Assembly: GCA_001787405.1 (NCBI GenBank)
Contig: MFWV01000011.1
Location: forward strand, 48,857 to 112,856
Length of the DNA stretch: 64,000 nucleotides
Source: Candidatus Pacebacteria bacterium RIFOXYA1_FULL_38_18
GTDB taxonomy: Bacteria; Patescibacteriota; Microgenomatia; UBA1400; PJMF01
Reading direction: 5' to 3'
The translations under genes were made by a program, and so were the position numbers. Shown one piece after another: positions 16,209-62,204 of this stretch. Under the pieces are notes generated by a model. The model saw only the letters and a list, made by a program, of their open reading frames with translations. It made no database searches and had not been told where the DNA came from. Each line of letters opens with the position of its first letter. Position 1 is the stretch's first letter.

Positions 16209-16220
16209 AATTTGGACTCC

Positions 16221-16712: not shown

Positions 16713-16731
16713 GATTGTAGTATAGCTTTCT

Positions 16732-29793: not shown

Positions 29794-32133
29794 TTGATGT
29801 TTATAGAATCTGATAGTTTTGTCACCAGTGTTTCTATGTTTTTCATCAATCTCTTTTTATGGATAGGAATTATTGGTTTAGTACTTATTTTGGCTTATTT
29901 ATTTTTACAATGGTTTAAACATCGCAAACGCGAAGTCTATTCTCTGGACTTTGTAACACTACTAGTTCGTCTTCCCAAAGACAATGAAGTAAAGATTGAT
30001 GCTGCCGAACAAATGTTTGCCGGACTTTATTCTCTCAAAAATGATGGAATTTTCTCTTTCTTAAAACCAGAAGAAATCATTAGTTTTGAGATAGTGGGCC
30101 TCAAAGAAGAAATTGCTTTTTATGTTAGTTGTCCCAGAAAAATTAGAGATTTAGTAGAAAAACAAATTCATGGAGCATATCCCTTTGCTGATATCAAAGA
30201 AACTGATGAGGTAAATATTTTTAGCGAAAAAGGGCGAGTAGCTTTTTCTTCATTGAAACTTAAAGAAGGTCACTCTTTACCTTTAAAGACTTACAAAGAT
30301 TTACCAACAGACGGCTTGTCATTGATTACTTCTGCTTTTTCCAAAATGGGAGAAGGAGATGGTGCGATCTTGCAAATCTTGATCAGACCGGAAGGCAATC
30401 GTTGGCAGAAAAAAGGCAGAAACTACATCAAAAACGAAAAAAAACGAGAAGCTGATCCTCAAAAAGCAACTTATGGCCATGATCCAAAAGAAATGGAAGC
30501 AGTAACAACCAAAGTTGAAAAACCAGGCTTCAGAACCTCAATCAGAGTAGTGGTATCTTCAGCTCATGAATCAATAGCCCACTCACATTTAAATAACATT
30601 GACGGTGCTTTTTCTCAATTTGCTTCTACCTATAACCAACTCACTCATTCTCGTTTTTACATCAAACATCTTTTTATGATTGATTTTATTTATCGTTATA
30701 TGCCGTTATTTAATATAGGTACTTCAATTTTGAATACCGAAGAGTTAGCCACTGTTTTTCACTTTCCCAATAAAACTGTGGAGACTCATCACATCAAGTG
30801 GCTACAAGCCAAAAACGCACCAGCCCCGCATCAAATTCCCAATGAGGGACTCTTTTTGGGCAAATCTCTTTATCGTGGAGAAATACGAGATGTGCACATG
30901 AAGCTGAAAGATCGTCAACGCCACATGTACATCATTGGAAAAACTGGTACCGGTAAATCTGAGTTTTTGAAAGAAATGATCATGCAGGACATTATTAAAG
31001 GAGAAGGAGTTTGTGCCATTGATCCGCATGGTGAGTTTGTAGAAGATATTTTGCAATTAATGCCACCAGAACGGGCAGAAGATGTCATCTATTTCAACCC
31101 ATCAGATCTAGATCGGCCGATGGGTTTGAATATGATGGAAGCAGATTTTGAGGAACAAAAGCATTTTGTGGTGAGTTCCATTATTGGTTTAATGTACAAA
31201 TTATATGATCCGCATCGCACTGGTATCATCGGTCCGCGATTTGAGCATGCCATCAGAAACGCTATGTTGACAATCATGTCTAGAGAAGGTTCTACTTTTA
31301 TTGAGCTAGTTCGGGCCCTAACAGATCAAAAATTTGTTGAAGAGCTCTTGCCTTATGTTAAAGATCCGGTAGTAAAACGATATTGGACTGATCAGATTGC
31401 TCAAACCAGTGATTTCCATAAGTCAGAAGTGCTTGACTACATTGTGTCCAAATTTGGCCGTTTTGTGACCAATAAAACGATGAGAAACATCATTGGCCAG
31501 CCCAAGAGCTCTTTTAATTTCCGCAAAGCAATGGACGAGAAAAAAATTATTTTATGCAACCTTTCCAAAGGCATCTTGGGTGAGGAAGATGCCAAGTTTC
31601 TTGGTTTGATTCTAGTGCCAAAAGTCCTAACTGCTGCTATGAGCAGACAAGATGTGCCGATGGATCAGCGAACTGATTTTTTTCTCTATGTGGACGAGTT
31701 TCAAAACTATGCTACCGAGGATTTTGCCACCATTCTTTCAGAGGCTAGAAAATACAAACTCAATTTGATTGTAGCCAATCAGTTTATTGGTCAGATTGAT
31801 GAGGAAGTCAAAAACGCGGTGTTTGGTAATGTTGGCACCATTATTTCTTTCCGCATTGGCGTAACAGATGCCAATTTCCTACAACATGAATTTACTCCAG
31901 TTTTTAACGAAACAGACTTGGTTAATGTAGAAAAGTATCACGTTTACATTAAAACCATTGTCAACAATGAGCCAGTATCAGCTTTCAGCATGTCATTGGA
32001 AAAAGACATGGACGCCATCAAAGCCCAAATGAATCCCAAGTTGGCAGAAATGATCAAACAGCTTTCCCGCTTAAAATATGGTAAAGAGAGATCCGTAGTT
32101 GAGGCAGAAATTTCCATTAGAGCAAGATTATAA
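29794..32133 (+). CDS. membrane-anchored P-loop ATPase of the FtsK/HerA/VirB4/VirD4 (TraG-like) superfamily
   Basis: 779 aa. N-terminal TM helices. Walker A IIGKTGTGKSEF. DPHGE motif. Walker B FFLYVDEFQNY. ARKYKLNLIVANQ arginine-finger/Q region. Confidence 0.6.
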   Translation: MMFIESDSFVTSVSMFFINLFLWIGIIGLVLILAYLFLQWFKHRKREVYSLDFVTLLVRLPKDNEVKIDAAEQMFAGLYSLKNDGIFSFLKPEEIISFEIVGLKEEIAFYVSCPRKIRDLVEKQIHGAYPFADIKETDEVNIFSEKGRVAFSSLKLKEGHSLPLKTYKDLPTDGLSLITSAFSKMGEGDGAILQILIRPEGNRWQKKGRNYIKNEKKREADPQKATYGHDPKEMEAVTTKVEKPGFRTSIRVVVSSAHESIAHSHLNNIDGAFSQFASTYNQLTHSRFYIKHLFMIDFIYRYMPLFNIGTSILNTEELATVFHFPNKTVETHHIKWLQAKNAPAPHQIPNEGLFLGKSLYRGEIRDVHMKLKDRQRHMYIIGKTGTGKSEFLKEMIMQDIIKGEGVCAIDPHGEFVEDILQLMPPERAEDVIYFNPSDLDRPMGLNMMEADFEEQKHFVVSSIIGLMYKLYDPHRTGIIGPRFEHAIRNAMLTIMSREGSTFIELVRALTDQKFVEELLPYVKDPVVKRYWTDQIAQTSDFHKSEVLDYIVSKFGRFVTNKTMRNIIGQPKSSFNFRKAMDEKKIILCNLSKGILGEEDAKFLGLILVPKVLTAAMSRQDVPMDQRTDFFLYVDEFQNYATEDFATILSEARKYKLNLIVANQFIGQIDEEVKNAVFGNVGTIISFRIGVTDANFLQHEFTPVFNETDLVNVEKYHVYIKTIVNNEPVSAFSMSLEKDMDAIKAQMNPKLAEMIKQLSRLKYGKERSVVEAEISIRARL

Positions 32134-35268: not shown

Positions 35269-35580
35269 TTACCGTGCTTCGTAACTATCTACCACCTGTT
35301 TGCAGTAAAGATATTGACCGTAATCAATAGCCTTTTGCTGAATACTGGGGCTACTCTCATCTACTTGAATACTGGTTCCTAGAACATTTTTTGCTTGAGT
35401 GCCAATTTCTTGGGCGCGAGAAGACATAATGGCAAACTGCTGACTGATGTTGCCCTGAAGAGCATCGATTTCTATGGGAAGACTTGGGTTATTGGCTAGG
35501 GAATTATTTTTAAAGAAATAAATATAGCCAGCAACCAGGAGGCCGATAATAGCCAGCGTGATATAAATTTTTCTTTTCAT
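35269..35580 (-). CDS. hypothetical small membrane-anchored protein
   Basis: Start taken at internal Met (MKRKIYITLAIIGLLVAGYIYFF) to avoid overlap with the ABC permease gene. Coordinates are approximate to about 3 nt. Confidence 0.35.
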   Translation of the reverse strand: MKRKIYITLAIIGLLVAGYIYFFKNNSLANNPSLPIEIDALQGNISQQFAIMSSRAQEIGTQAKNVLGTSIQVDESSPSIQQKAIDYGQYLYCKQVVDSYEAR

Positions 35581-35602
35581 TACTTTTGAGTATAACTTAG
35601 AT

Positions 35603-36823
35603 TTACTCGTAGCGCAGAGCTTCGATAGGGGAAAGTCTAGAAGCTCGTCTGGCTGGGGCAACGCCAAAAATGATTCCTACGGCTGCTGAAACACCAAAAG
35701 CCAAAAGTACCGCTTCCATAGTGACTTTGGCAGGGAAGAAGGCTTGTATGGCCAAAGAACCTAAATAGGCGATTCCCAAGCCAATCAAGCCACCAATGAC
35801 CGATAATAGGGCTGATTCGATTAAAAATTGAAATAAAATTTGATTGGGTGTAGCACCCAGGGCTTTACGCAAGCCAATTTCTCGGGTACGTTCAGTCACT
35901 GACACCAACATGATGTTCATGATTCCTATTCCGCCCACGATCAAAGAAATTGCTCCAATCCCACCCAAGGCAATAGTGAGTGTTCCCAAAATACTATTGA
36001 TTGTGTCTAGCAACTGAGTTTGATCAAAAACCGTAAACTCATCATCATCCAAAAATTTACTCAGGCTTTTTTCTACACCAGCTTTTGCTGACTCAACATC
36101 ATTTTGGTCCACTGCTTCAAAAGTAAATGAATCAATTAACTCAATATTGAAGTCATCAAACAGAGTATTGAGAGGCAAATAAACATAATTATCAAAATTT
36201 GGTCCACCAAAACTACCTCCCTGTTTCATCAACACACCGCTAACTGTGTAGGTTCGACTTTCAATGCGGATACGTTTACCTACCGGATCAATTTTACCGA
36301 ATAATTCTTCTGCGATACCATTTCCCAATACCACCACTCGCTCACTTCTGGATTCAGAGGCTTCATCAAACCATTTACCTTTTTCAGTCTCCATTTTGAC
36401 TACTTCACCATAATTGGCGGTTACGCCATAAAGAGTGATGCGTTTTGTGATTTCGCGGTATTTAGCTTCACCAGTGCTAAAGCCACTAGCTACTCCTGCT
36501 CTTATTATTCCTCGATTGTCACGCAAGACCTGATTAAGATAGGAACGTTTTAGGACTGGTTTGGTGCTTTCTATAAAACTGCTTTCACCAGAAAATCCAG
36601 ATCCTTCACCAAAAGGATTTCCTGGAGAAACAAAAATAATATTGCCTCCCAAACTGGCAAACTGATCGCTAATGTAAGCTTGCAAGCCAGCACCGATTGA
36701 AATGAGTAAAACAACGGAGGACACACCGATAATTACTCCCAGCATGGTAAGAAAAGCACGTCCCTTATTGACCGCGATGGCTTTAATGGCAATTAAAAAA
36801 GTATTTTTTAGATTTATATTCAT
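35603..36823 (-). CDS. ABC transporter permease, FtsX/MacB family
   Basis: 406 aa. N-terminal TM, large extracytoplasmic domain, three C-terminal TMs. Overlaps the ATPase gene by 4 nt. Confidence 0.8.
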   Translation of the reverse strand: MNINLKNTFLIAIKAIAVNKGRAFLTMLGVIIGVSSVVLLISIGAGLQAYISDQFASLGGNIIFVSPGNPFGEGSGFSGESSFIESTKPVLKRSYLNQVLRDNRGIIRAGVASGFSTGEAKYREITKRITLYGVTANYGEVVKMETEKGKWFDEASESRSERVVVLGNGIAEELFGKIDPVGKRIRIESRTYTVSGVLMKQGGSFGGPNFDNYVYLPLNTLFDDFNIELIDSFTFEAVDQNDVESAKAGVEKSLSKFLDDDEFTVFDQTQLLDTINSILGTLTIALGGIGAISLIVGGIGIMNIMLVSVTERTREIGLRKALGATPNQILFQFLIESALLSVIGGLIGLGIAYLGSLAIQAFFPAKVTMEAVLLAFGVSAAVGIIFGVAPARRASRLSPIEALRYE

Positions 36824-37554
36824 GATTTGAGTTTTCCGTTTACGATTTTTCCGTCAATCAAAGAAATATGTTTTTTGGCAATCTCAGCCACGTCATGTTC
36901 ATGAGTTACCATGATGATGGTTTTGCCCTCGAGATTGAGTTGCTTGAGAATTTTTTTAACCTCTTCACCACTTTTTGAATCCAAGTTGCCAGTTGGTTCA
37001 TCAGCAAAAATAATAGCGGGATCGTTGACTAGGGCTCGGGCGATAGCCACTCGCTGTTGTTGGCCGCCAGAAAGCTGAGAGGGGCCGTTATCCAGACGAT
37101 CTCCCAATCCTAGTTTTTCTAGAATATTGCGAGCTTTCTGGCGGCGAGTAGTTTCATCTATTCCAGCATAAACGAGAGGTAAGGCTACATTTTCCAAAGC
37201 AGAGGTTTTGGCTAACAAATTGAAAGTTTGAAAAACAAAACCAACCTCTTTATTTCTCAAGCGAGCCCTCTCTATTTCGTTGTATGTACTGGTATCTTTA
37301 CCATTAATCAAGATTTTACCCGAACTGGGTGTAGCTAGGATGCTAGCCACTTGTAAAAAAGTCGATTTTCCAGAGCCAGAGGGTCCCATGACAGAAAGAA
37401 ATTCGCCTTCTTTGACAGTCAAAGAAATATCGTCCAATGCTTTGATTGTTTGTGTTCCCACTTGATAAATTTTGGAAACATTTTTTAGTTCCAAAATAGT
37501 TGAATGAGTTTTTTTGGTATTTTTTAACTTACCTGAGTGTTTATTTTGAGGCAT
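36820..37554 (-). CDS. ABC transporter ATP-binding protein (MacB/LolD-like)
   Basis: Walker [10 protein letters not shown]. Signature [15 protein letters not shown]. Walker [13 protein letters not shown]. Start at internal Met, just downstream of the adaptor gene stop. Confidence 0.9.
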
Positions 37555-37576
37555 TGCATTGGTTGAGTTGATCAAT

Positions 37577-38620
37577 TTATTCAGGCAATAGAATCTCATC
37601 AGCTTCTGACAAGCCTGATAAAACCTCTATTTTTTCTTCTGTTTCCATTCCAGTAACAAGCTCCCGCTCTTCATAGGTATTTTTACCAGTGCGAAGATCA
37701 ACATAGACTTTTTCATCACGTTCTCTAGTGGCAATCAAAGGAACGGTGAGAACATTTGCTTTTTCTTCTATTTTTATCTCAACATCCCCATTCATGCCCA
37801 ACCGATATTTATTCAAGCTATCTATCTGATCAATGGGCATTTCTACAGCAAAAACTGTACCGCTAGCAGACAAGGTGCTCTGATAAGCAATGTAATTTAT
37901 GAAACTATCTATGTTTTCATCAGCATATGCATCCAGACTAATTACGGTTGATTGATTGGTCTGAATCAAAGAAATGTCTGCTTCGTCTACTAATGCTCGG
38001 AAAATAAGTGTTTTAGGATTGACGATCAGAAAAGAATCAGTTGCTAGTAGTTGTATGCCAGACACATTGGTCGGGGATTGAACTAAAATGCCATCAATGG
38101 GTGAAGACATCACGGTATTGGCTACAGTAATAGCTGCTATTTCCAGATCTATGACTGAATTTTCCAGATCTAATTGATTTTTTTCTACAGTACGGTTTTC
38201 CTCCTGATCTATTGTTCTGTCTTTGACATCATCAAGTTGTTGATCCCAATCCAGACGTTCTTTGGAATAAAGATTTAAATATTTTTCTTTACTTTTGGCA
38301 ACGCTGGCAGCATCAATTTGAGCAATTGTTTGCCATTTTTTTACCGAATCACCCTCTTTAGCTCCCAAATAAGTAACTTTACCACCAGCTAGAAAGCGTA
38401 AAGAAGCTTTTTCTTTGGCATCAATTACACCAGAAACCTCCAATGTTTTTATCAAATTTTCTCTAGTAGGAGAGATAAAAATAAGTTGTTCTTGATCTTG
38501 TGATTTAGCCAGAACCAGGCGACCGGCAACCAACAAGATAACTAAACCAATAATTATCCACCAGCGCTTTGTTTGCCAGAGATTTTTTAGTTTATTTAAA
38601 AACGGTTTAAAAAATTTCAT
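37577..38620 (-). CDS. efflux periplasmic adaptor / membrane-fusion protein (HlyD/MacA-like)
   Basis: 347 aa. N-terminal TM, then coiled-coil and beta-barrel-like regions. First gene of a three-gene efflux operon. Confidence 0.7.
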   Translation of the reverse strand: MKFFKPFLNKLKNLWQTKRWWIIIGLVILLVAGRLVLAKSQDQEQLIFISPTRENLIKTLEVSGVIDAKEKASLRFLAGGKVTYLGAKEGDSVKKWQTIAQIDAASVAKSKEKYLNLYSKERLDWDQQLDDVKDRTIDQEENRTVEKNQLDLENSVIDLEIAAITVANTVMSSPIDGILVQSPTNVSGIQLLATDSFLIVNPKTLIFRALVDEADISLIQTNQSTVISLDAYADENIDSFINYIAYQSTLSASGTVFAVEMPIDQIDSLNKYRLGMNGDVEIKIEEKANVLTVPLIATRERDEKVYVDLRTGKNTYEERELVTGMETEEKIEVLSGLSEADEILLPE

Positions 38621-38649
38621 GAGCAGCTATTCTATCAAATTATTGCAAG

Positions 38650-38723
38650 TGCGTGCGCTAGGACTCGAACCTAGAACCACCAAGGTATAAGCTTGGTGCT
38701 CTGACCAATTGAGCTACGCACGC
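38650..38723 (-). tRNA. tRNA-Ile, anticodon UAU (reads AUA)
   Basis: Hand-folded cloverleaf. Acceptor GCGTGCG/CGCACGC. D-stem GCTC/GAGC. Anticodon stem CCAAG/CTTGG with loop CTTATAC. T-stem CTAGG/CCTAG with loop TTCGAGT. No encoded CCA. Confidence 0.75.
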
Positions 38724-38815: not shown

Positions 38816-39523
38816 TTAGAGCAAGAGTAGTAGTAATGCTCCTATTCCCAGAGTGGCTAAACCAACTTGTAGATAATTTAGCCAGTCAGCAGGACCGCTT
38901 TTGTATAATTCTTCAGGATAATCAGGTTGTCCGTCCGCAACAGATGCGGAAGGTGTTGAGGTTGGAGCAGAAGTAGGCGTTAGTGTAGTTGTTGGTGTAG
39001 TAGTTGGTGTAGTCGTTGGCGTAGTAGTTGGTGTAGTCGTTGGCACTGGCTCTTCACAACAACTAGCAACTGTAGGATTGGCAATACAGGCATCTTTATA
39101 ATCTTCTACTGCACAGTATTTTTCTCCATCATCAGCAGTAATACAGACCAAGTCGCCAGCGCAGTCAGTATCGGTTCCACAAGGAGTGTAACCACACTCA
39201 CTAGGTTCAGCTGGCTCTAATACAGTAAAGGTCAAAGTACAACTTGATTGTCGAATAATAGAGGCTTCTGGGAAAGATTGCGGAGCACTAGGAGCTACTG
39301 GCTCTTGACTCAAGTATTGTTTTTGAGCAATCAATACGCCCACCAAACCAATAGCAAAAAACACGATCAGAATCAAAATTGTCCAGATTGTTCTGGCTAT
39401 GGGTGGTTTTTGCGGAGGAACAGCCCGTTCTTTGGCGTAACGCTTGGCAAATTCCTGTTGCTTTGGCGTTGAACTAGTCATTGGGGCTTGGTTGGCTGGT
39501 GGGTTTTGATAAGTGTTTTCCAT
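38816..39523 (-). CDS. cell-surface protein: N-terminal signal-anchor, Cys-rich module, (PTTT)n linker, conserved C-terminal GPADWLNYLQVGL-TM tail
   Basis: Start taken at MENTYQ, 4 nt after the upstream stop. PTTTPTTTPTTTPTTT linker. C-terminus KSGPADWLNYLQVGLATLGIGALLLLLL is paralogous to the tail of 40681..41589. Confidence 0.6.
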   Translation of the reverse strand: MENTYQNPPANQAPMTSSTPKQQEFAKRYAKERAVPPQKPPIARTIWTILILIVFFAIGLVGVLIAQKQYLSQEPVAPSAPQSFPEASIIRQSSCTLTFTVLEPAEPSECGYTPCGTDTDCAGDLVCITADDGEKYCAVEDYKDACIANPTVASCCEEPVPTTTPTTTPTTTPTTTPTTTLTPTSAPTSTPSASVADGQPDYPEELYKSGPADWLNYLQVGLATLGIGALLLLLL

Positions 39524-39527
39524 CAAT

Positions 39528-40544
39528 TTATTCACAAGTACTTGGTGTATAAGGTTCCCAATCACAGATAGTAGTGTTTGATGAGTTTGTATAACAAACA
39601 GCACATTGCACTGCATAACTTCCAGCTAGTTCAATGTCGTAACTTATTCCCCAGCTATTTGATATAAGTTGCAAAGGCGAATCGTGGTGATTACTGCCAC
39701 ATGGTTCCCATATTTTGAATGAATAGAAGTATTCATCATTATCTATGGGAGTAGTAGCCGAACAAACAAAATTAACAGTAGTTTCACCGGGTATAAAGCC
39801 AGCATCGTCTTCACCATTCAACGCAATATTTGTTCCACTAGTAGGATCTAACATTGTTATACTATGACATTGTGGACCGACGGGTGATGTAGGTGTGGGA
39901 GTAGATGTAGGTGTGGGAGTTGGTGTAACGGAAGGAGTTGGTGTTGGGGTTGGCGTGTTGTCGCAGGTAGAATCATATTCACAGGTACTATAACGAATTT
40001 TCTGCACTTGATAAGTGCCATTGGCCCCAGTGCAAAAATTACCATCTTTCATACAATCGAAAATCCAAATCTGGCACCTATCTGTTCCTACACATCTTGT
40101 GTCTACACAATGATCTGCATATTCGCTACAACCAGAAGGACAACTACTCACAATATCATCCTCAAATTGTGGTCTATGATAGCAAGCATTATTGTTTACG
40201 CTACCACCTGAAGGATAACTAGTTGGAGTGGGAGTGGGTTCTTCTCCTGCTTTAATAGGAGTGGGAGTGGGTTCTTCTCCTGCTTTAATAGGAGTGGGAG
40301 TCGGTTCTTCTCCTGCTTTGGTAGGAGTTGGAGTGGGAGTGGGTTCTTCTCCTGCTTTATAAGCCTGCTGGCGAACGTCCTGACTTTGTTTGGTTAAAAA
40401 TAAACCTACGGCCGCTCCTATAAGGAGCACTAATAAAACTATACCACCCATCCAGAGTGACAATGTTTTTTTTTGGGGACTAGAAAATTTACTAAAGTCT
40501 TTATTTGGTTGTGGACTGATAAAACTAGAATTATTTTCTGACAC
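39528..40544 (-). CDS. cell-surface protein: N-terminal signal-anchor, KAGEEPTPTPI tandem repeats, large Cys-rich domain
   Basis: 338 aa. TM GGIVLLVLLIGAAVGLFL, then QDVRQQAYKAGEEP shared with 40681..41589. About 20 Cys in the C-terminal half. Confidence 0.6.
   Translation of the reverse strand: MSENNSSFISPQPNKDFSKFSSPQKKTLSLWMGGIVLLVLLIGAAVGLFLTKQSQDVRQQAYKAGEEPTPTPTPTKAGEEPTPTPIKAGEEPTPTPIKAGEEPTPTPTSYPSGGSVNNNACYHRPQFEDDIVSSCPSGCSEYADHCVDTRCVGTDRCQIWIFDCMKDGNFCTGANGTYQVQKIRYSTCEYDSTCDNTPTPTPTPSVTPTPTPTSTPTPTSPVGPQCHSITMLDPTSGTNIALNGEDDAGFIPGETTVNFVCSATTPIDNDEYFYSFKIWEPCGSNHHDSPLQLISNSWGISYDIELAGSYAVQCAVCYTNSSNTTICDWEPYTPSTCE
40225..40360. repeat. 33-nt in-frame tandem repeat (about 4 copies) encoding KAGEEPTPTPI
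   Basis: GGAGTGGGAGTGGGTTCTTCTCCTGCTTTAATA recurs head-to-tail with one or two substitutions. Confidence 0.7.
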
Positions 40545-40680
40545 AGTGTTAATAATTCTTCGCTTTATTTCAAAACCATTTTTATATAAGTGAAGAATCT
40601 TTCTCCAGTATATAGAACTTTTTAGGTAAAGGTCAACTAAGAACGCTTGGGAATTTTTTTATTTTAATTGATGAGTAATT

Positions 40681-41589
40681 TTAAATGAAGAGCAGTAACA
40701 AAGCTCCAATTCCCAACATGCCCAAGCCAATTTGCAAGTATTTTAGCCAATCTTCTGGTCCGGTTTCAGGCAAAGTGCTGGGAAGAGTGGGCTGATCATC
40801 CTGATAGCCAGTGGTACCAGTGGTGGTACCAGTAGTCGTAGTTTCAGTATAGGCGAGAGTATCGGTATTTTCATCAGTCTCATCAGTTCTAGTATAGGCA
40901 AGAGTATCGGTATTTTCATCAGTGTCATCAGTGGTGCTAGTTGGAGTGGGAGGAGTTGGGGTAACAGTCGTTGTAGTAGTGGTGCTAGTTGGAGTGGGAG
41001 GAGTTGGGGTAACAGTCGTTGTAGTAGTGGTGCTAGTTGGAGTGGGAGGAGTTGGGGTGATAGTAGTTCCGCTAGTTGGAGTGGGAGTTGAGATGACAGT
41101 AGTTCCACTAGTGGGAGTGGGAATCGGTTCCTCTCCCGCTTTGGTAGGGTCTTCTCCTGCTTTAATAGGAGTGGGAGTCGGTTCCTCTCCTGCTTTGGTA
41201 GGGTCTTCTCCTGCTTTGGTAGGGTCTTCTCCTGCTTTAATAGGAGTGGGAGTCGGTTCCTCTCCCGCTTTGGTAGGGTCTTCTCCTGCTTTATAAGCCT
41301 GCTGGCGAACGTCCTGACTGATTTGAGTAAGATATAAACCAGCTCCACCACCTATGATGATAATCAATAATCCTATCAAGGCAATGATAGTGTTTTTTGA
41401 CAATTTACCCTTTTTCTTTGGTGGTTGAGTTGAAGAGGGGGTAGCAGTTTCTGATTTATTTGGAACTTTTTCCTCGTTCTTTGTTTGTGCGCTAGTTGGC
41501 TCGCTTATATTTTCCTTTGGAAGATCAGTCGGCAACTCTGGAGGCAAAGAATCTGTAGGCTGGGGTGTAGAACCAATAACGTTGATCAT
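40681..41589 (-). CDS. LPXTG-type cell-surface protein with KAGE(D/E)PT repeats and poly-Thr/Pro stalk
   Basis: N-terminal signal-anchor. KAGEDPT / KAGEEPTPTPI repeats. TTTTTTVTPTPPTPTS triplicated. C-terminus LPETGPEDWLKYLQIGLGMLGIGALLLLFI. Confidence 0.65.
   Translation of the reverse strand: MINVIGSTPQPTDSLPPELPTDLPKENISEPTSAQTKNEEKVPNKSETATPSSTQPPKKKGKLSKNTIIALIGLLIIIIGGGAGLYLTQISQDVRQQAYKAGEDPTKAGEEPTPTPIKAGEDPTKAGEDPTKAGEEPTPTPIKAGEDPTKAGEEPIPTPTSGTTVISTPTPTSGTTITPTPPTPTSTTTTTTVTPTPPTPTSTTTTTTVTPTPPTPTSTTDDTDENTDTLAYTRTDETDENTDTLAYTETTTTGTTTGTTGYQDDQPTLPSTLPETGPEDWLKYLQIGLGMLGIGALLLLFI
41105..41300. repeat. in-frame tandem repeats (21-nt and 33-nt units) encoding KAGEDPT / KAGEEPTPTPI, plus a thrice-repeated roughly 57-nt Thr/Pro unit at 40930-41100
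   Basis: GGTAGGGTCTTCTCCTGCTTT and GGAGTGGGAGTCGGTTCCTCTCC(T/C)GCTTTGGTA units. GGTGCTAGTTGGAGTGGGAGGAGTTGGGGTAACAGTCGTTGTAGTAGT occurs three times. Confidence 0.65.
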
Positions 41590-41644: not shown

Positions 41645-42757
41645 TTATGAACTAGAGAGGTGTAAAGAAGAAGTTATGGTTTGATATTTATTTCTGATAT
41701 TTATGAATATTGCTGCGAAAAAAAATGCCATAATCCGCGGTCTTATGAGGCGAACCAAAGAAGAATCATTTTTAATAATTAATTTGAGAATATTTAGTCT
41801 GATAAGAATTTTTTTAATTTTTGGTTCATATTTTTTAAGATGCCAAAACTTCAAAGGAGGAAACTCAGCGAACCACTCGATTGGCAATAAATGAGCCAAT
41901 ATGAGAATTTTCCAAGATGTATTTTTACTAATAAAACTTGGAGTTGAGTATCTAAAGAAACAATTGCTCAAAATTATCATCAACCAGGCCTCATTTTGAA
42001 ACTGATATTGTTTTGCTAATTGTAAAAAATTAGACCATTGACTTGGTTTTTTATAGGTTTGAGTTAATTTTCCGATTTCATAAAGCGTGCCCAGACCCGT
42101 TGCTAAATCATTGAATAAAAAACGAATGCACAAAGACAGTAATTGATAGTTTTTATTTTGAATGTGGTGATTGTGTTTTGTGTTGTTCAATAGTGCTGTG
42201 GAAAATTTCCGCACAATTAGGATCTCTTGCGCATTGAGAGTGCCAAAATGTGGATGTGCAATCATGCTATGAATATCAAGATTTAAATAACGAGCCTTAG
42301 AATAAGTAATTTCTTTGGGCGGATAAATGGTTTTTTTATAACCCTGATTGGTTAACCATTGATCAATAATCATCATGCCCTGCTTGTTGGTAAGCAAATC
42401 AAGATCATTAGTAAGAAATAATTGCTGATTTAGTTTGTTTTTAAAATCCTTAAAAAAAATACCTTTTATTTTTGTTTTCTCCAAAAAAGAAATTAGACGT
42501 TGTTTTTCTTTTTCATATAACAAGCTGGAAAAAATGCTATTTTTTTGATGTTTGATTAGTTTGTTTTTAAAAGATTTATTCAAATGTTTTTGACAATTTT
42601 GACAGTTTGTAAAGTGATCTAAGGCATGGAAAACTTTATTAAACATTGCTTTTTCATAGAGTTTGCTAGTGCTTTTTTTAACTAAATTGATTGGAGGACA
42701 AACAGAGGAATTGTTTTGCAATAAAAAAACCAAGATTTCTATATCGGCATTTAACAT
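41645..42757 (-). CDS. uncharacterised nucleotidyltransferase (pol-beta superfamily, NTP_transf_5-like)
   Basis: 370 aa. hhxDhDhh metal-binding motif TNDLDLLTN. Size and composition fit the PF14907-type family often found in peptide-modification clusters. No HMM was run. Confidence 0.45.
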   Translation of the reverse strand: MLNADIEILVFLLQNNSSVCPPINLVKKSTSKLYEKAMFNKVFHALDHFTNCQNCQKHLNKSFKNKLIKHQKNSIFSSLLYEKEKQRLISFLEKTKIKGIFFKDFKNKLNQQLFLTNDLDLLTNKQGMMIIDQWLTNQGYKKTIYPPKEITYSKARYLNLDIHSMIAHPHFGTLNAQEILIVRKFSTALLNNTKHNHHIQNKNYQLLSLCIRFLFNDLATGLGTLYEIGKLTQTYKKPSQWSNFLQLAKQYQFQNEAWLMIILSNCFFRYSTPSFISKNTSWKILILAHLLPIEWFAEFPPLKFWHLKKYEPKIKKILIRLNILKLIIKNDSSLVRLIRPRIMAFFFAAIFINIRNKYQTITSSLHLSSS

Positions 42758-42760
42758 AGA

Positions 42761-43702
42761 GTGATTATAATCGTTGTTATGATATCTGTTTTGATTGCTA
42801 CTAAAGAACGGCCAGATTCATTACTTGTGTGTCTTCAATCAATTGTCTCCAATCAATTCACTCAGTACGAAGTGATTGTTATTGATCAGAGCAATGTTGT
42901 CAGTGCGCTAATCAAACAATATCTTAAAAAGCATCATCGCATACATTTTTATCATCTGCCAAATAGGGGTAGGGAGAGGGGCAAAAGTTATGCCCTACAA
43001 CAAGGATTGATGAAAGCAAAAGGAGAAATCATTGCTTTTACAGACGATGACTGCATAGTGGATAAAAAATGGTTAAAGATTCTTTGGCAAGGTTTTGCCC
43101 AAAACAAATGTGATGGTCTATTTGGTCAGGTTTTACCATATCAGCCAGCTCAACATGCTGATGAAACTTGCCCCTGTACAATGCGTTTTGCAAAAAAAGA
43201 ATTTGTTCGTCAACCGCGCTACCATGTTTCCATTGGTTACGGCAATAACATGGCTTTTAGAAAGCAAGCTCTTGATGAGATTGGTTCACCAAAAACCTGG
43301 CTCGGTCCCGGATCAATTGGTTCGAATGCGGAAGATGCGGAGCTTACCCTACGGGCATTATTTGCCAAAAAAATTATTTTGAGATATCCAAAATCTATTG
43401 TTTATCACAATCGTTGGTTGAATGCTCAAGAAATGAAAGAACAGCAACTCTCTTACACTCAAGGAGAAGCGGCTTGTTATGGCTATTTTTCCTTTCTTGG
43501 ATCAAATTTTTGCAAACAAATATTAATTAGAGGAATCAAAGCCAATCTTCAGAATTTAAAACGCAATCTATTGTCAGTTTTTAGTTTTAACAAAGGTAAG
43601 CGGACGCGAAACAACGTTTATTGGAATTTTCGATCATTACTAGCTAGTGCACGAGGATTGAGTGTAGGATTTTGGTTTTTTTTAACAGAGTCTTTAAAAT
43701 AG
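42761..43702 (+). CDS. soluble glycosyltransferase family 2
   Basis: VLIATKERPDSLLVCLQSI, VIDQSN and AFTDDDC are GT-A motifs. No TM. Confidence 0.7.
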   Translation: MIIIVVMISVLIATKERPDSLLVCLQSIVSNQFTQYEVIVIDQSNVVSALIKQYLKKHHRIHFYHLPNRGRERGKSYALQQGLMKAKGEIIAFTDDDCIVDKKWLKILWQGFAQNKCDGLFGQVLPYQPAQHADETCPCTMRFAKKEFVRQPRYHVSIGYGNNMAFRKQALDEIGSPKTWLGPGSIGSNAEDAELTLRALFAKKIILRYPKSIVYHNRWLNAQEMKEQQLSYTQGEAACYGYFSFLGSNFCKQILIRGIKANLQNLKRNLLSVFSFNKGKRTRNNVYWNFRSLLASARGLSVGFWFFLTESLK

Positions 43703-43703
43703 T

Positions 43704-44699
43704 TTGATTAAAATTATGTCAATATCAGCTTCAATTATTATTCCAACCAAAGAGAGATTTGAAACTCTCCAGCATTGTTTATTGGCTACAATTAAACAAT
43801 TATCCAAAGAGGACGAAGTAATGGTGGTAGAAAATGGTCAAGCTTATCAAAAAACTAAACACTTAATTAATATTTTAGCCAAAAATCACCAAATAAGTTA
43901 TGTTCATGAATCACGACTTGGACCAGCTTTTGCTCGCAATAAAGGAATTAGTTTGGCTCGCAATGAAATCTTGATTTTTTTGGATGATGATTGTGTGCCT
44001 GGTCCGGGCTGGTTGAAAGCAATTAAAAAGCGTCATGAAAATGAAAAAAAACACCAGCAAACAGTGGTTTTTCAGGGAAAAATTAATTATGTTTATAAAA
44101 AATCGAATGCATTTGTTGAGTTATTTCATTTAAGAAATCGGATGGATTGGCAAGTAATTCGGAAAACTCCGGGATGGAAAATGGGGAAATTCATAAATTT
44201 TTTAAATGCTGGAATTTTTTCTGTTCGAAGGTCGGTTTTAGTTAAAAATAAGATTAAATTTAATGAACTTTTTTTTCCTTTTGTTGGTGAAGAGAGAGAT
44301 CTGACAGCGCAATTACATTTGCATGGTATTTCCATTGTTTATGCATCGGAAATACAAGTAACACATTACAAAGATAGAGGAAGCGTAGTGAATTCATTAA
44401 AAAGATCTTTTCAGGCGGGATTGGCACAAGAAATACTGAACGTTTTATATAAAACCAATCAATCAACAAAATCTTTGTTTAAGAAATCTTTTCGAAAAGA
44501 AAAAAATGGAATAATCGCTGAATTGTTAAAACAATTTAATCAGCAGTCACTATTTACCATTACAGGTATGATCATTACTTATTTGCGATTGAGTATGTTG
44601 GTCCTGGGAAGAGTTTATGGCAAATTTTGGTGTCTGTTGCAAAAAAACAAGCTTTATGAACATAGAAAAAAGCTATTTTTATCAATCACTAAGAACTAA
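43704..44699 (+). CDS. soluble glycosyltransferase family 2
   Basis: SIIIPTKERFETLQHCL and IFLDDDCVPGPGWL match the GT-A fold. No TM. One nt after the previous GT2 stop. Confidence 0.7.
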   Translation: MIKIMSISASIIIPTKERFETLQHCLLATIKQLSKEDEVMVVENGQAYQKTKHLINILAKNHQISYVHESRLGPAFARNKGISLARNEILIFLDDDCVPGPGWLKAIKKRHENEKKHQQTVVFQGKINYVYKKSNAFVELFHLRNRMDWQVIRKTPGWKMGKFINFLNAGIFSVRRSVLVKNKIKFNELFFPFVGEERDLTAQLHLHGISIVYASEIQVTHYKDRGSVVNSLKRSFQAGLAQEILNVLYKTNQSTKSLFKKSFRKEKNGIIAELLKQFNQQSLFTITGMIITYLRLSMLVLGRVYGKFWCLLQKNKLYEHRKKLFLSITKN

Positions 44700-45168
44700 T
44701 AAGCTTGCGATATAGATGTTTTAAAAAAGGATATTTATAAAGATTTTTTATTTTTAATAAATTTGGAAAATGGTGATTCAGTCGTGAATACCAAGTCAGA
44801 ATAAAAACAAAAAACCGCGAGCGATTATTTTCCAAAAAGATAGTATGCGAAGGATATATGATTTTTATAGCTTTTCCCATGAGTTTTTTAATATCAACCT
44901 GGTTATCATAATCTAATTTATTATCGCCCTTGGTAATAACATATTTTTTTTTAATAGCCATTAAGCGATGAAGAATTATTTGATTGTTTTTTTTAAAAGC
45001 TACAATATCGCCAACCGTATATTCTTGAGAATAATTAAGTTTTAAAACAACTTTTGCACCATGTTTAATTAAGGGTTCCATGCTATAACCCTTGCTAGTG
45101 GTTTGTATAATAAGCGAATGTTTATTAGTAATGAATTGAGTAATTAATGAAACATTTTTCATTGTCAT
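44689..45168 (-). CDS. S26-family signal-peptidase-like serine protease (Ser/His SipW/ER-type), no obvious TM
   Basis: GYSMEP (nucleophile Ser). ILHRL (His replaces the Lys of the KR box). KGDNKLDYDNQ (GDNxxxSxDSR-like). Start ambiguous; the ORF track gives 45234. Confidence 0.5.
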   Translation of the reverse strand: MTMKNVSLITQFITNKHSLIIQTTSKGYSMEPLIKHGAKVVLKLNYSQEYTVGDIVAFKKNNQIILHRLMAIKKKYVITKGDNKLDYDNQVDIKKLMGKAIKIIYPSHTIFLENNRSRFFVFILTWYSRLNHHFPNLLKIKNLYKYPFLKHLYRKLISS

Positions 45169-45185
45169 TGTGCATTGCTGATTTG

Positions 45186-46334
45186 ATGATTTTACTATAC
45201 ACGAACACAAATCAAGAGCATGATTTTTTGGCAAACAAATATGAGGACTATATAGTAACGGACAGTCAAGAAAAAACTGCAGTAGTATCTATTGCTTGCG
45301 GTTTTGAACATCGTGAGAAAGAAATTCCCAGCTTTGTTTTTAAAGAAAGTGTAATAGAGAGGTTTGGTTTATTTAGTGAGTTTTTCCGCAAAATATTAAT
45401 GGGAGTATTAAATACTCATGATGGAGCTTTATTGCATGCCAGTTCTATTGTTTATAAAAATCAGGGCTTTATTTTTATTGGTCATGAAGGAGCAGGCAAA
45501 ACAACTATTCGCAAATTACTAAATAACTACGTTTCTTTGGGCGATGATACAGCTATTATACGAATTAGAGGGGAAAAGACTTATCTATATGGTTCTCCAC
45601 TTTATCAACGAACTAAGCGTTCTTATCCGAATAAACGAGTTTTGATCTGTGGTATTTTTTCTTTAAAACAAGCAAAATATGCTCTAATTAATGATCTTGA
45701 TCTCAATCAGCAAGTGAAAGCGCTGTCGTCAAATGTTTTTTTATCTGGCTTAAAAGAATTTAACAATGAAAATAGAAAATTAAGTTTGACATTATTTACT
45801 TTGGGACAGCAACAACTTGTTCATAATTTATCTTTTGCCAAAACATCCCCAGTATCAAAAGTACTAAAAATATTTGCTCAAAAACCCTGGCAAAAAAAAT
45901 CAATCAAGAACCTATTGGTTCAAGCCAGCACTGTCTTTGTTCAAGAACTCCAAGATCATGTTGTTTGGTCGAAGGGTGTTGCCGATCGCGACTTTTTAAC
46001 TCAATGTTTGATAATTAATGAACATAGTTGGATTTTTGAATTCGGTTCACAGCGAATTTTGAAAGTAATAGCAGATAAAATTATTGGAAATCAAGAAGAG
46101 GCTTATCATCATTCTCTTGTGTTTAAAAAAATTAAACAATTCAAAGAAATCAAGGTTTTGCCTACGATAGTTGTTGTTCGAAAAGAAAATAATTTTGTAA
46201 TTATTGATGGCAATCATCGGGCATTGGCTTGGTATTTGCATAATAAAAATAATTTAACTGGAGAAATTTTGGTGTTAGTAGGAGATTTAAAAAATAATTT
46301 TAAAGAAAATAGTAAAATTTTTGCTTATTTATAA
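45186..46334 (+). CDS. HPr-kinase-like P-loop kinase fused to a C-terminal ParB/Srx-like domain
   Basis: GFIFIGHEGAGKTTIRKLL...LGDD fits the HprK C-domain pattern GxxGxGKS/T...hhDD. C-terminal VIIDGNHRALAWYL is ParB-like. Start ambiguous; the ORF track gives 45147. Confidence 0.5.
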   Translation: MILLYTNTNQEHDFLANKYEDYIVTDSQEKTAVVSIACGFEHREKEIPSFVFKESVIERFGLFSEFFRKILMGVLNTHDGALLHASSIVYKNQGFIFIGHEGAGKTTIRKLLNNYVSLGDDTAIIRIRGEKTYLYGSPLYQRTKRSYPNKRVLICGIFSLKQAKYALINDLDLNQQVKALSSNVFLSGLKEFNNENRKLSLTLFTLGQQQLVHNLSFAKTSPVSKVLKIFAQKPWQKKSIKNLLVQASTVFVQELQDHVVWSKGVADRDFLTQCLIINEHSWIFEFGSQRILKVIADKIIGNQEEAYHHSLVFKKIKQFKEIKVLPTIVVVRKENNFVIIDGNHRALAWYLHNKNNLTGEILVLVGDLKNNFKENSKIFAYL

Positions 46335-46369
46335 TTTTTGATTTTTTATAAAACTAATTAAGGTTGAAC

Positions 46370-46915
46370 AATTATTTTCAAAAACTACCGAACAACGTCG
46401 ATTGTTGGGAGTTTGGGCACATCCAGATGACGAATCACTCAATATAGAAGAAATTTTGGCTCTAGCAAACAAAGCTAAAATAAATACGCAAATAATTTGT
46501 CTTATGGAGAAATGGGCTTATCTCAAAATAGTGCCTTAGGGACTCGAGGGCGAGATGGGAAATCTGGCAAGAAAGCGATCGGTCGTGGAAGCTTTATTTT
46601 AGCGTTCTGGAACAGGACATAAAACGTCTTTATAAACATTCCAGAAAACTAACGATTTGGAAAAATATGCTAAAAGCAGATTTTCAAATAAGTATTACCA
46701 AAACAACTGATCAAAAAATAACGGCCTGTTTAGCTCACGTCAGCCAGTTGTCAGTTCTCAACAAACCAATCCCATTAAAAATAATTTTTAAAATGTTTGA
46801 TAATGAGTATTTACATCTAGTAACTGCACAAAACAAATATAATTTTCAATTTGTGAATTTTTTCACTCAAAGGTATAATTATCGTGTCAAAAACAAAACC
46901 GAAGGCTTTTCATAA
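46370..46915 (+). pseudogene. decayed LmbE/PIG-L-family deacetylase gene (no start codon, frameshift)
   Basis: Hand translation of 46378.. gives EQRRLLGVWAHPDDESLNIEEILALANKAKINTQIICLMEKW, with the PIG-L AHPDDE motif, ending in a stop. The reading frame of ORF 46667..46915 continues it after a frame change. Confidence 0.4.
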
Positions 46916-46931
46916 TAAAAAGGAATATTTT

Positions 46932-47216
46932 ATGGCTAAAAAATTTGACGATAATACTATGATAAAAAGAATGCAGGGCATTGTTTATAAAGAAGTTGAA
47001 GGGGTGTTTTATATTTTGAACTATCAAACAGTAACATTGCACACACTCAATGAAACAGCTAGCTTTGTCTGGAAAGAATTGGCCAAACCCAAAACTATTA
47101 AACAATTAACTGAAACGATCGTTGATAATTTTTCAACAACGAAAACTCAAGCAAAACAAGATCTTGAAAAATTCATTATCAAGTATAAAAAACTTGGCTT
47201 TCTTGAACTGATATAG
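46932..47216 (+). CDS. PqqD-family protein (RiPP recognition element-type peptide chaperone)
   Basis: 94 aa from MAKKFDDN with RBS AAGGAA 8 nt upstream. LNETASFVWKEL, LTETIVDNF and AKQDLEKFIIKYKKLGFLEL match the PqqD/RRE consensus. Confidence 0.65.
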   Translation: MAKKFDDNTMIKRMQGIVYKEVEGVFYILNYQTVTLHTLNETASFVWKELAKPKTIKQLTETIVDNFSTTKTQAKQDLEKFIIKYKKLGFLELI

Positions 47217-47393: not shown

Positions 47394-48317
47394 TTAAGAA
47401 TTAATGTCAACTTTGTATTGAAAAATATTTTTTTCATTTAATTGGTTATTAATCTTTTTTTTGTTCGAGAAAATCCCAATAAAATTTCCTTTGCATTTAT
47501 AAATTTGAGTATAACGGGCGATTTTAATATATTTTTCAAAAAATGAACGATGATCGATTGATGATTTTTTCAAACCAAAATTGACAATGACGTACTCACT
47601 AGATGCGAGAATTTTTTTAATAAAAATACTATTTTTTATCTTTGGAACAATAAGATGATCGACAAAGAGATCAACAATTATAAGACCATATTGCTTTTTA
47701 TTTTGCGAAGTATATGCAAAAGCATCAGCTTGAATTAATTTAATTTTAGAAATTTTTGATCCAAGAAAACTTTTTCGCAAGGGTAAAAAATATTTTTTAG
47801 CTACTTTAATCATAATGGGAGAAATTTCTACTACATCGCTGGAGATTTCAAGACTAGTCAATAATTCCAATGGAATTACTGCTCCGCCCCCACCTAGCAC
47901 TAATGCAGAGCGTTTTTGAGGTTGATTTTTTTTAATTAATTTACGAATGAAGTCTAAATACAACCAAGAATTATGATTTTTTAAATAAATAGAAGAATAA
48001 GATACATTAGATTTCGGCTGGCAAATTGTTCTCAATGATTTGGATGGATGTAAAGGAAAAAAACGATCTCTAACAATGAAATGTTCCTTATTTTTTTCGA
48101 TTATTTCTTTTTGAAAAACAGTTATACCTTTAGTTAACCCTAAAAAAACTAAAATAAGAATAATATTAATAAAAACCAAAGTAATAACGACGAAAATTTC
48201 TAAGGGAAGTTTAAATACTAAATTAAAAATTAACCAAATGATGAATGAAGATAAAAAAAATAAGATTTTTTTATAACCAATAGAGGTTTTGGTAATCCAA
48301 AAAGGTTTTATTTTCAT
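47394..48317 (-). CDS. membrane-anchored spermidine-synthase-like (PABS fold) protein
   Basis: Two N-terminal TMs. VLGGGGGAVIPLEL glycine-rich motif. GLIIVDLF. Confidence 0.55.
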   Translation of the reverse strand: MKIKPFWITKTSIGYKKILFFLSSFIIWLIFNLVFKLPLEIFVVITLVFINIILILVFLGLTKGITVFQKEIIEKNKEHFIVRDRFFPLHPSKSLRTICQPKSNVSYSSIYLKNHNSWLYLDFIRKLIKKNQPQKRSALVLGGGGAVIPLELLTSLEISSDVVEISPIMIKVAKKYFLPLRKSFLGSKISKIKLIQADAFAYTSQNKKQYGLIIVDLFVDHLIVPKIKNSIFIKKILASSEYVIVNFGLKKSSIDHRSFFEKYIKIARYTQIYKCKGNFIGIFSNKKKINNQLNEKNIFQYKVDINS

Positions 48318-48362
48318 TGTAATGATCGTATAAAATTGACTAAAATCTGCTTTGACAAATTA

Positions 48363-49112
48363 TCAATGACGAACCAGAACATTTTTTTTATAAGCTTCTA
48401 TAGCCCTTATTCCATCATTTTGAATAAGTTTTCCTTTTTCCAGCCAAATGATTCTCGTGCAATGATCTTTTAGATAATCCAACCAATGACTGACGCTAAT
48501 AATTGTTTTACCTTGTTTGTAAAATTGATTGATTTTTTGCAAAGATTTTTTTCTAAACTCTTCATCTCCCACAGCTATTGCCTCGTCCAAAAGTAAAATA
48601 TCTGGATCAGAGTGAACAGCAATAGAAAATCCTAGTCTCAAGGACATTCCAGAAGAATAGGTGTAAAGGGGAGAGTCAATAAATTTTTTTAGGCCGCTAA
48701 ACTGAATAATTTTTTTATATTTTTTTTCTATTTCTGGTCTCGTCATGCCAACAATAAGTCCATTGAGAAAAATGTTTTCTTCTCCAGTGAGTTCAGGATG
48801 AAAACCCGCTTCAAGTTCTATTAATGAAACAATTCTTCCTTTAGTGATAATTTTTCCAGTTGTGGGAGCGGTTATGCCAGCGATCATTTTGAGAACAGTT
48901 GTTTTTCCAGATCCATTGGGCCCAATGATTCCCACTTTTTCTCCACTATATATTTCGAAAGAAACATCTTTTAGAGCCTCAAATTTTTCTCTAGATTCCA
49001 GTCCCAAAAATGATCCTACCAGAGTTGGTTTTTGGTGTTTAAGAACGTATTTTTTACAGACTTTTTCAAAATAGATAACTGTTTGTTTTTTGCGTTTCAT
49101 TTTTACATCCAA
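48363..49112 (-). CDS. ABC transporter ATP-binding protein, polysaccharide/teichoic-acid exporter type (Wzt/TagH-like)
   Basis: Walker A GPNGSGKTT. Signature YSSGMSLRLGFSIAV. Walker B ILLLDEAIAVGD. Confidence 0.85.
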   Translation of the reverse strand: MDVKMKRKKQTVIYFEKVCKKYVLKHQKPTLVGSFLGLESREKFEALKDVSFEIYSGEKVGIIGPNGSGKTTVLKMIAGITAPTTGKIITKGRIVSLIELEAGFHPELTGEENIFLNGLIVGMTRPEIEKKYKKIIQFSGLKKFIDSPLYTYSSGMSLRLGFSIAVHSDPDILLLDEAIAVGDEEFRKKSLQKINQFYKQGKTIISVSHWLDYLKDHCTRIIWLEKGKLIQNDGIRAIEAYKKNVLVRH

Positions 49113-49858: not shown

Positions 49859-49871
49859 CCAATTTCCTTTT

Positions 49872-53329: not shown

Positions 53330-53350
53330 AATAATTTTTTTTAAAATTTC

Positions 53351-54019: not shown

Positions 54020-54024
54020 CTAAT

Positions 54025-60765: not shown

Positions 60766-60897
60766 TTATTTATTAAATAGCAGTTTTCGCATTTTTGCAT
60801 CATTAAATTTTTTCAATGAATAAAATATGAAATTTTTTTGAGTGGGTTTTTTAATTGGGTAAGATGAAAAATAATGGCTGCACTACCACGTATTTCA

Positions 60898-60937: not shown

Positions 60938-60973
60938 TTTATTTTTTAAAATCATTTATTTTCTATTTACTAA

Positions 60974-62198: not shown

Positions 62199-62204
62199 AT
62201 GTGA

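Follow-up and report, generated by a model that had tools for sequence, protein, structure and literature searches.

A conserved C-terminal tail on Microgenomates surface proteins as a candidate lineage-specific variant of the LPXTG sortase signal

Genes C, B, and A and the tail shared by C and A

We analyzed a 64-kb stretch of DNA (the window; 64,000 nucleotides of contig MFWV01000011.1) from a Candidatus Pacebacteria metagenome-assembled genome (MAG) of the Microgenomates lineage of the Candidate Phyla Radiation (CPR), focusing on three neighboring genes, here called C, B, and A, and on the C-terminal tail common to the products of C and A. CPR bacteria, or Patescibacteria, are thought to be host-attached, and the anchoring of their surface proteins is essentially uncharacterized. 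An earlier note on this DNA had described three genes for Pro/Thr-rich surface proteins, each beginning with a cytoplasmic segment and a transmembrane (TM) helix. A check of the open reading frames (ORFs) of the window found all three on the minus strand at the coordinates listed here, and the N-terminal segment and TM helix are present in the layout of each.

40681..41589, minus strand: gene C, 302 aa; identical gene call in public records
41296..41316, minus strand: QDVRQQA of gene C, immediately past the N-terminal TM helix (class-1 N-terminal module)
40684..40773, minus strand: gene C tail, LPETGPEDWLKYLQIGLGMLGIGALLLLFI, with LPETG at 40759-40773
39528..40544, minus strand: gene B, 338 aa
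40362-40382, minus strand: QDVRQQA of gene B
38816..39523, minus strand: gene A, 235 aa, start ATG at 39523
39263-39301, minus strand: PVAPSAPQSFPEA of gene A (class-2 N-terminal module)
38819..38908, minus strand: gene A tail, LYKSGPADWLNYLQVGLATLGIGALLLLLL, with LYKSG replacing LPxTG at 38894-38908

The gene C product consists of a cytoplasmic N-terminus of ~67 aa, a single TM helix, QDVRQQA, KAGE[ED]PT(PTPI) repeats, T/P-rich repeats, and the LPETG tail, ending in ...QPTLPSTLPETGPEDWLKYLQIGLGMLGIGALLLLFI; its repeats are also visible as tandem repeats in the DNA. Gene B has a C-like N-terminus, QDVRQQAYKAGEEP, in which the TM helix is followed by QDVRQQA and KAGEEPTPTPI repeats, and continues through a Cys-rich region and a Pro/Thr linker into a C-terminal domain rich in beta structure, but lacks the tail. 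Its AlphaFold model was unusable (predicted local distance difference test score, pLDDT, of 44), and a homologue search with gene B was dominated by Pro/Thr-rich words and yielded one true orthologue. In gene A, the TM helix is followed by PVAPSAPQSFPEA, a disulfide-rich module of ~50 aa, PTTT repeats, and the tail, which ends in ...QPDYPEELYKSGPADWLNYLQVGLATLGIGALLLLLL. The Cys-rich module of gene A (window 39100-39230; ECGYxPCxTDxDCxxxLxCxTADDGxxYC..ACxxxPxxxxCCEEP), also found in the family member P0171, is shuffled among A-type and B-type proteins. The AlphaFold model of gene A, run with seven orthologues, places DWLNYLQVGLATLGIGALLLLLL in a single terminal helix (residues 211-234, pLDDT ~72-81), and the N-terminal TM helix of gene A scores 83-91. 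A fold search of the gene A model against the PDB returned small, knottin-like disulfide knots at E>1 only, which is not significant.

Gene A almost certainly starts at ATG 39523 (MENTYQNPPAN) and not at the upstream ATG 39616, as judged from its orthologues, all of which start likewise (MENTYQ...). This start lies 4 nt past the TAA stop of gene B. The window corresponds, in reverse complement, to part of GenBank record MFWY01000010.1 (GCA_001787375.1), a Rifle-groundwater Candidatus Pacebacteria MAG whose annotation contains no gene A. At the PTTT repeat of gene A (window ~39068-39125) that record has a 33-N gap, the window itself being gap-free, and three metagenome assemblies break at this repeat, which makes its copy number in the window uncertain. 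Of the three tandem-repeat periods reported there, two (12 and 24 nt) are divisible by 3, and the orthologues show an identical architecture.

Pairwise comparison bore out two of the relations that the note had proposed. B and C have ..QDVRQQAYKAGE[ED]PT.. and the KAGEEPTPTPI repeats in common (67% identity over 76 aa, E=9e-23), and A and C have the tail in common and nothing else (24/39 identical, E=7e-14). Its description of the three proteins as paralogous did not hold. No significant similarity was detected between A and B in the same comparison, and since B and C share an N-terminal part, A and C a tail, and A and B nothing, the three genes form a mosaic in which C joins a B-type N-terminus to an A-type tail. 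As the note had stated, only one window tail carries LPXTG, that of C (LPETG), A having LYKSG in its place. LPETG and GPEDW are both present in C, although not as the separate elements given before (LPETG-GPEDW): a single G is shared between them, giving LPETGPEDWL....

A family of tails with a near-invariant LPx[TS]G core

A profile built from the two window tails alone was run against 1.84 billion representative proteins and matched 167 clusters at E<=1e-3, 28 of them at E<=1e-10, a resemblance far greater than chance would give. Among the best 150 matches, 147 ended at most 3 residues from the C-terminus of the protein, and the tail-bearing proteins, which range from 30 to 1504 aa, are otherwise unrelated. 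A word-indexed search with the 40-aa tail found no match, though the collection holds near-same tails (e.g. P0021), and is uninformative. Scanning one genome per GTDB species with a narrow tail alignment gave 37 loci, all on Patescibacteria-type contigs (Woesebacteria, Pacebacteria/'Paceibacterota', and 'Patescibacteria group'), and a metagenome scan gave 37 further loci. Several genomes carry tail genes at two or more loci, frequently two or three in tandem, which suggests a handful of tail substrates per genome. Fourteen tail-bearing GTDB records (L009-L011, L019, L020, L024, L026, L027, L029, L030, L032, L036, L041, and L044) bear Pseudomonadales, Limisphaerales, or Methylococcaceae titles; they look like mislabelled or mis-binned CPR contigs, because most of the records with a comparable gene order share Microgenomates synteny.

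These matches bear directly on the origin of the tail shared by A and C. The two genes lie 1.2 kb apart, and B and C have near-identical DNA repeats in common, as might be left by a recent local duplication or gene conversion of neighboring genes. Against this stand the 167 tail-bearing clusters elsewhere, which also dispose of the possibility, raised in the note itself, that the tail occurs in these two genes only, together with the presence of A-type and C-type orthologues in many species. Moreover, the tail-coding DNA of A is just 61% identical to that of C, with many synonymous differences, which argues that the two are old copies kept by protein-level selection and not products of recent conversion. 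Given the 167 clusters, the 37 GTDB loci, and the 61% identity of the tail DNA, we rejected recent duplication, to which we give practically no credence.

The consensus of 155 aligned tails is QPxLPxELP[QE][TS]GP[EA]DWxN[WY]L[KQ]AGLxTLG[IV]GAxLLLLL-COOH. Within the pentapeptide, the first position is L in 144/155 and the second P in 143/155 (Y in 5); the fourth is T in 81, S in 63, and A in 9, and the final G is present in all 155. The GP[EA]DW spacer and three glycines of the helix (GLxxLGxGA) are almost invariant as well. The hydrophobic C-terminal helix starts at an aromatic belt of DW/W, three residues past the invariant G, and no Lys or Arg occurs in the last 8 residues of any of 148 tails. 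This, together with the helix modeled at pLDDT ~72-81, agrees with the earlier observation of a terminal hydrophobic helix without a basic tail. LPx[TS]G is a near-invariant rule to which the LYKSG of gene A is a rare exception. The orthologues of gene A have LPVSG, LPVAG, or LPQSG at the pentapeptide, and LY variants are found in other species too (P0033, P0076, L028, L072, and L075); as they recur in several species, Y may be tolerated at the second position. Every LPxTG-type C-terminus in ~0.7 Mb of related loci has the form of the tail, and none is of the canonical kind with a basic tail.

The tail is thus a conserved, dedicated C-terminal sorting or anchoring module carried by many unrelated proteins. 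The proposal of a dedicated sorting signal is upheld by the 167 clusters, whereas the accompanying idea that LPETG is one variant of a signal of the PEP-CTERM/PGF-CTERM kind is not, LPx[TS]G being near-invariant in the 155 tails.

We scanned 100 full-length family members with Pfam and NCBIfam and found the following passenger domains.

23/100 members: DUF11 repeats
17/100 members: RrgB-type isopeptide-forming fimbrial domain
14/100 members: bMG10
6/100 members: DX-like Cys modules
1/100 members: GBS104-like tip-pilin Ig domain

Such a repertoire is what one would expect for sortase substrates; genes A, B, and C themselves have no isopeptide-forming fimbrial domain. Pfam CarbpepA_inh was matched at 1.5e-8 in 2 of the 100 members, the match not necessarily lying in the Cys-rich module. 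No Pfam or NCBIfam model describes the tail in the window genes, the orthologues of gene A, or the 100 members, and Pfam PF00746 (Gram_pos_anchor) matched none of the tail proteins tested. Gene C scores 19.0 bits against TIGR01167 (LPXTG_anchor), above the curated cut-off of 15.9; the match covers profile positions 1-29 of 34 and leaves the basic tail part unmatched. Neither gene A nor its orthologues match TIGR01167. In the literature searched, we found no paper describing the tail.

Candidate mechanism, N-terminal modules, and gene neighborhood

We consider it likely, though well short of assured, that the tails of C, A, and at least 167 clusters elsewhere represent the LPXTG sortase sorting signal in a version specific to Microgenomates, of the form QPxLPxxLPx[T/S]-G-P[E/A]DWxx[W/Y]L[K/Q]xGLxxLGxGAxLLLLL-COOH. 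The motif is terminal, sits on unrelated passengers, is restricted to Patescibacteria/Microgenomates, and is followed by a hydrophobic helix with no basic tail. The assignment to sortase draws on the motif itself, the passenger domains, and the literature on Microgenomates. A sortase family was reported from more than half of CPR genomes and as 'near ubiquitous in Microgenomates' (Meheust et al. 2019; PMC6744442), the supplement of the same study has PF04203/K07284 in 1020 CPR genomes (PMC6744442), and a complete Microgenomates genome is reported to encode a sortase (PMC7143001).

If the tail is such a signal, the N-terminal region, which has a long basic cytoplasmic segment and then a TM helix, would act as a signal-anchor that inserts the protein and leaves its N-terminus in the cytoplasm, while the Pro/Thr-rich stalk would sit outside the cell together with the passenger domains, Cys-rich or Ig-like. 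The C-terminal helix, from the DW aromatic belt onward, would hold the precursor in the membrane, which it would thus cross twice. The membrane sortase of the lineage would then cut between T/S and the invariant G and attach the protein either to peptidoglycan or to a further pilin-like subunit. Candidate substrates are the tail forms QPTLPSTLPETGPEDW, ..ELPQSGPEDW, and ..ELYKSGPADW. Gene C would be a standard substrate, and gene A, with LYKSG, a recurrent variant that might be a poorer substrate or stay anchored in the membrane. The Pro/Thr stalks could also be glycosylated, as GT2, GT4, PMT_2, and Wzy_C genes crowd the downstream 20 kb. A large glycan-assembly region at window 47394-63392, with GT1/GT4, GT2, two Wzy_C, PMT_2 (54025-55605), WecG, and an ABC-2 exporter, could glycosylate the stalks.

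Several observations weigh against a sortase signal. The basic C-terminal tail that defines canonical LPXTG signals is missing in 148/148 tails, gene A and a few relatives have no Pro in the pentapeptide, one sub-branch has xTESG instead of LPxTG, and TIGR01167 matches only 4 of the 100 family members at E<=0.01. Further, the near-invariant spacer and helix glycines suggest specific recognition in or at the membrane, because a generic anchor that is cleaved and discarded would need neither. We scanned the window and 84 loci for a sortase motif ([TSAV][LIVMF]x[TSA]C, preceded by a GH and followed by an R). No sortase was detected among the ORFs of the window, all of which were scanned for the motif and most of which were annotated with Pfam, in agreement with the note, and the motif scan found none within +/-10 kb of 74 tail loci (~1.1 Mb in total); the scan had no positive control, and a very divergent sortase could escape it. 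The portion of the genome read for sortase was the 64-kb window and ~10 kb on each side, and a sortase in the source genome would be expected on the basis of the literature cited above.

The lack of a sortase adjoining any of the 74 loci would fit an uncleaved C-terminal anchor. Each protein would then form a hairpin whose two ends, the N-terminal signal-anchor and the C-terminal helix, both stay in the membrane, and the LPxTG-like stretch would be a conserved juxtamembrane element or an evolutionary relic. Such an anchor would also be compatible with a helix that has no basic tail yet is strongly conserved, with invariant glycines and a DW/W belt, and with the persistence of the Pro-less variants LYKSG, LYQTG, and xTESG in several species. 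It does not account for the fact that conservation peaks exactly at the sortase positions P4, P3, P1, and P1' (L, P, T/S, and the invariant G), that the passengers are of the sortase-substrate type, or that the lineage is rich in sortase (PMC6744442). We regard an uncleaved anchor as improbable. A standard sortase with LPXTG substrates, which the earlier note had set against its own proposal, is the more likely explanation of both tails in view of the near-invariance of LPx[TS]G, the TIGR01167 score of gene C, the passengers, and the sortase reported for Microgenomates; recognition beyond that by a generic sortase is possible. A modified form of the earlier idea, in which the tail is specifically recognized in or at the membrane, is in our estimate rather unlikely.

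The N-termini of the tail proteins fall into two classes, each with a motif directly past the TM helix, and this holds family-wide (P0001-P0162 and loci L008-L084). In class 1 (genes C and B), KKK and a TM helix with a conserved G/YL are followed by ..YLxQxxQ[DE][VIL]RQQA, and conservation drops straight after the final A from ~4 bits to <1 bit. In class 2 (gene A), the TM helix is followed by ..Q[RK]Q..PVAP[NT]APxSxPxA and then by a conserved C[TS]LxFxV strand. In most members the TM helix comes after a long cytoplasmic N-region and starts at a median of residue 49; neither module is covered by a Pfam or NCBIfam model. Signal peptidase I cleavage usually follows the -3/-1 rule, which ..RQQA and ..PxA do not match; the two motifs may be processing or recognition sites. 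In one sub-branch (P0089, P0104, P0138, and P0143), a shorter tail is combined with ordinary signal peptides, which indicates that the two ends of these proteins are independent modules.

The tail genes are part of a conserved neighborhood whose other elements in the window are as follows.

38649..38723, minus strand: tRNA-Ile(UAU), between gene A and the HlyD-like gene
35269..38620, minus strand: MacAB-like cassette
37577-38620, minus strand: HlyD-like adaptor
36820-37599, minus strand: ABC ATPase
35603-36823, minus strand: MacB/FtsX permease
35269-35580, minus strand: small 103-aa TM protein

The order (C)-B-A-(C)-tRNA-Ile(UAU)-HlyD-ABC-FtsX-small TM was found in 27 of 39 tabulated loci, 37 of the 39 being the GTDB loci, and in each of the 27 related loci checked (L008-L045) the tRNA-Ile(UAU) stands at the matching place, in one orientation or the other. 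A B-type gene without tail lies immediately upstream of an A-type gene with tail in at least 19 related loci, and the stop and start codons of the pair often abut or overlap (window 39523-39530; L010, L012, L016, L018, L035, and others). Because the pairing is kept in so many loci, and often with such codons, B and A look like a functional pair; the arrangement suggests translational coupling and a two-protein complex.

A further proposal, near to that of the note, is that the tail belongs to a dedicated new sorting pathway that includes the N-terminal modules and has an in-membrane partner other than the housekeeping sortase, possibly the neighboring HlyD/MacB-type ABC system or an unidentified protease. 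Tail genes directly precede HlyD-ABC-FtsX-small in 27/27 cassette-bearing loci, and both conserved N-terminal modules break off abruptly, at ...RQQA or ...PxA. The upstream QPxLP, the GP[EA]DW spacer, and the GxxxxGxG helix are unlike canonical LPXTG signals, and the tail is without a Pfam or NCBIfam model. However, the tRNA-Ile, in either orientation, always intervenes, and the tail genes and the cassette therefore do not form one operon; their adjacency is possibly inherited synteny. We consequently downgraded the MacAB-like cassette as a dedicated partner. Its position beside the tail genes is best described as conserved synteny, the cassette being a possible functional partner. In addition, tail proteins occur at seven loci with no cassette (L014, L020, L023, L038, L041, L043, and L044), the LPx[TS]G core indicates sortase, and the NCBIfam scan of the 100 members found no motif or model match of the exosortase, rhombosortase, or archaeosortase type. 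A new pathway is, like the uncleaved anchor, improbable in our judgment.

A broader proposal would combine the tail, the two N-terminal modules, and the B-A pair into a two-ended pathway, specific to Microgenomates, that sorts envelope or host-contact proteins. Recognition would take place within the membrane and need a specialized partner, either a sortase that has co-evolved with the tail and carries an extended exosite or an enzyme other than a sortase, perhaps in concert with the neighboring HlyD/MacB-type system. The proteins sorted in this way could be the surface adhesins that are 'missing' from the type IV secretion or attachment apparatus of CPR bacteria. We offer this as a tentative idea and consider it unlikely.

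Other genes of the window were noted in passing. A 779-aa protein with DUF87, TrwB_AAD_bind, and TraG-D_C domains, resembling a coupling protein of type IV secretion systems (T4SS), is encoded at window 29794-32133 (plus strand); its family is present in 19 related loci, frequently adjoining the MacAB-like cassette. Seven small proteins are encoded in tandem at window 13948-17067 (minus strand), and of the three that were scanned, two clearly match Pfam T4SS_pilin (PF18895); the tandem is a VirB2-like pilin array of the type described for Microgenomates. Directly upstream of the dnaA of the window (L006) are VirB4-, PrgI-, and TraC-like genes. Window 41645-47216 holds a possible peptide-maturation cluster, resembling those for ribosomally synthesized and post-translationally modified peptides, with NTP_transf_5, two GT2 genes, an 82-aa ORF, an S24/S26-like peptidase (44689-45234), a ScmC-like gene (45147-46334), and a PqqD-like gene (46884-47216).

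A hidden Markov model of the tail would identify, in each Microgenomates genome, the handful of wall-anchored surface proteins that now go under 'hypothetical protein' and most of which present LPXTG models miss. The absent basic tail, together with the conserved spacer and helix, questions the minimal needs of a sortase signal, and the N-terminal modules provide a second testable handle on the targeting of envelope proteins in Microgenomates.

Comparison with known sorting systems

The signals of the PEP-CTERM/exosortase, PGF-CTERM/archaeosortase, and GlyGly-CTERM/rhombosortase systems resemble the tail in combining a short signature with a TM helix at the extreme C-terminus and in being lineage-restricted and carried by a few otherwise unrelated proteins per genome. 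The signature of the tail, in contrast, is LPxTG-like (LPx[TS]GP[EA]DW) and not PEP, PGF, or GG, and no Arg/Lys-rich cluster follows the helix (0/148). The 25 NCBIfam families that the scan of the 100 members listed include no model of the PEP-CTERM, PGF-CTERM, or GlyGly-CTERM type, and no polytopic exosortase-like gene was seen near any tail locus. The recurrent neighbors that were identified (HlyD, ABC, FtsX, the small TM protein, and the T4SS coupling-protein-like ATPase) include no such enzyme, several others being unannotated.

The YSIRK-G/S and KxYKxGKxW proteins likewise unite a family-specific N-terminal element in an extended N-region with a C-terminal sortase signal. Their N-terminal elements stand before the hydrophobic segment, whereas the Q[DE]xRQQA and PVAPNAPxSxPxA motifs of the tail proteins come after it, and the sequences are not similar. 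PrgB and PrgC of pCF10, LPXTG adhesins of a monoderm T4SS, are comparable to the tail proteins in being Pro- or repeat-rich and wall-anchored, in a monoderm with a FATA-type T4SS. The tail proteins have no homology to the adhesin domain of PrgB, no PrgB-like adhesins were detected in CPR (10.1101/2025.01.22.634366), and a link between the tail proteins and T4SS adhesins is a speculative one, suggested by position. Among pilus systems, sortase-assembled pilins are marked by an adjacent pilus-specific (class C) sortase and a pilin-motif lysine; no sortase-like ORF was found within +/-10 kb of the 74 loci, the pilin motif not having been searched for. The Pam pilus system of CPR (10.64898/2026.03.03.709456) was rejected as a match, since its pilins work by donor-strand exchange and have ordinary signal peptides, and it has no LPxTG.

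The closest relative of the tail is the LPXTG signal itself (TIGR01167/PF00746). Both place LPx[T/S]G at the C-terminus, a few residues ahead of a hydrophobic helix at the extreme end, and both are borne by a variety of surface proteins, among them isopeptide/pilin-like ones and stalk proteins rich in repeats; sortase is reported from the lineage, and gene C exceeds the TIGR01167 cut-off. The tail differs in having no terminal positive charges, ending instead in ...LLLLL-COOH, in the frequency of S at P1, which nearly equals that of T, and in its conserved upstream QPxLPxE, its GP[E/A]DW..[W/Y]L[K/Q]xGL spacer, and its invariant helix glycines. Most members fall under the TIGR01167 threshold, and most begin with long signal-anchors that have conserved motifs of their own, not with ordinary signal peptides. 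As the basic tail is absent and most members score below the family threshold, the tail is not a plain member of the LPXTG class; nor is it a categorically new system. It is probably a lineage-specific variant of the sortase signal, and the chemistry by which it would be processed is probably conventional.

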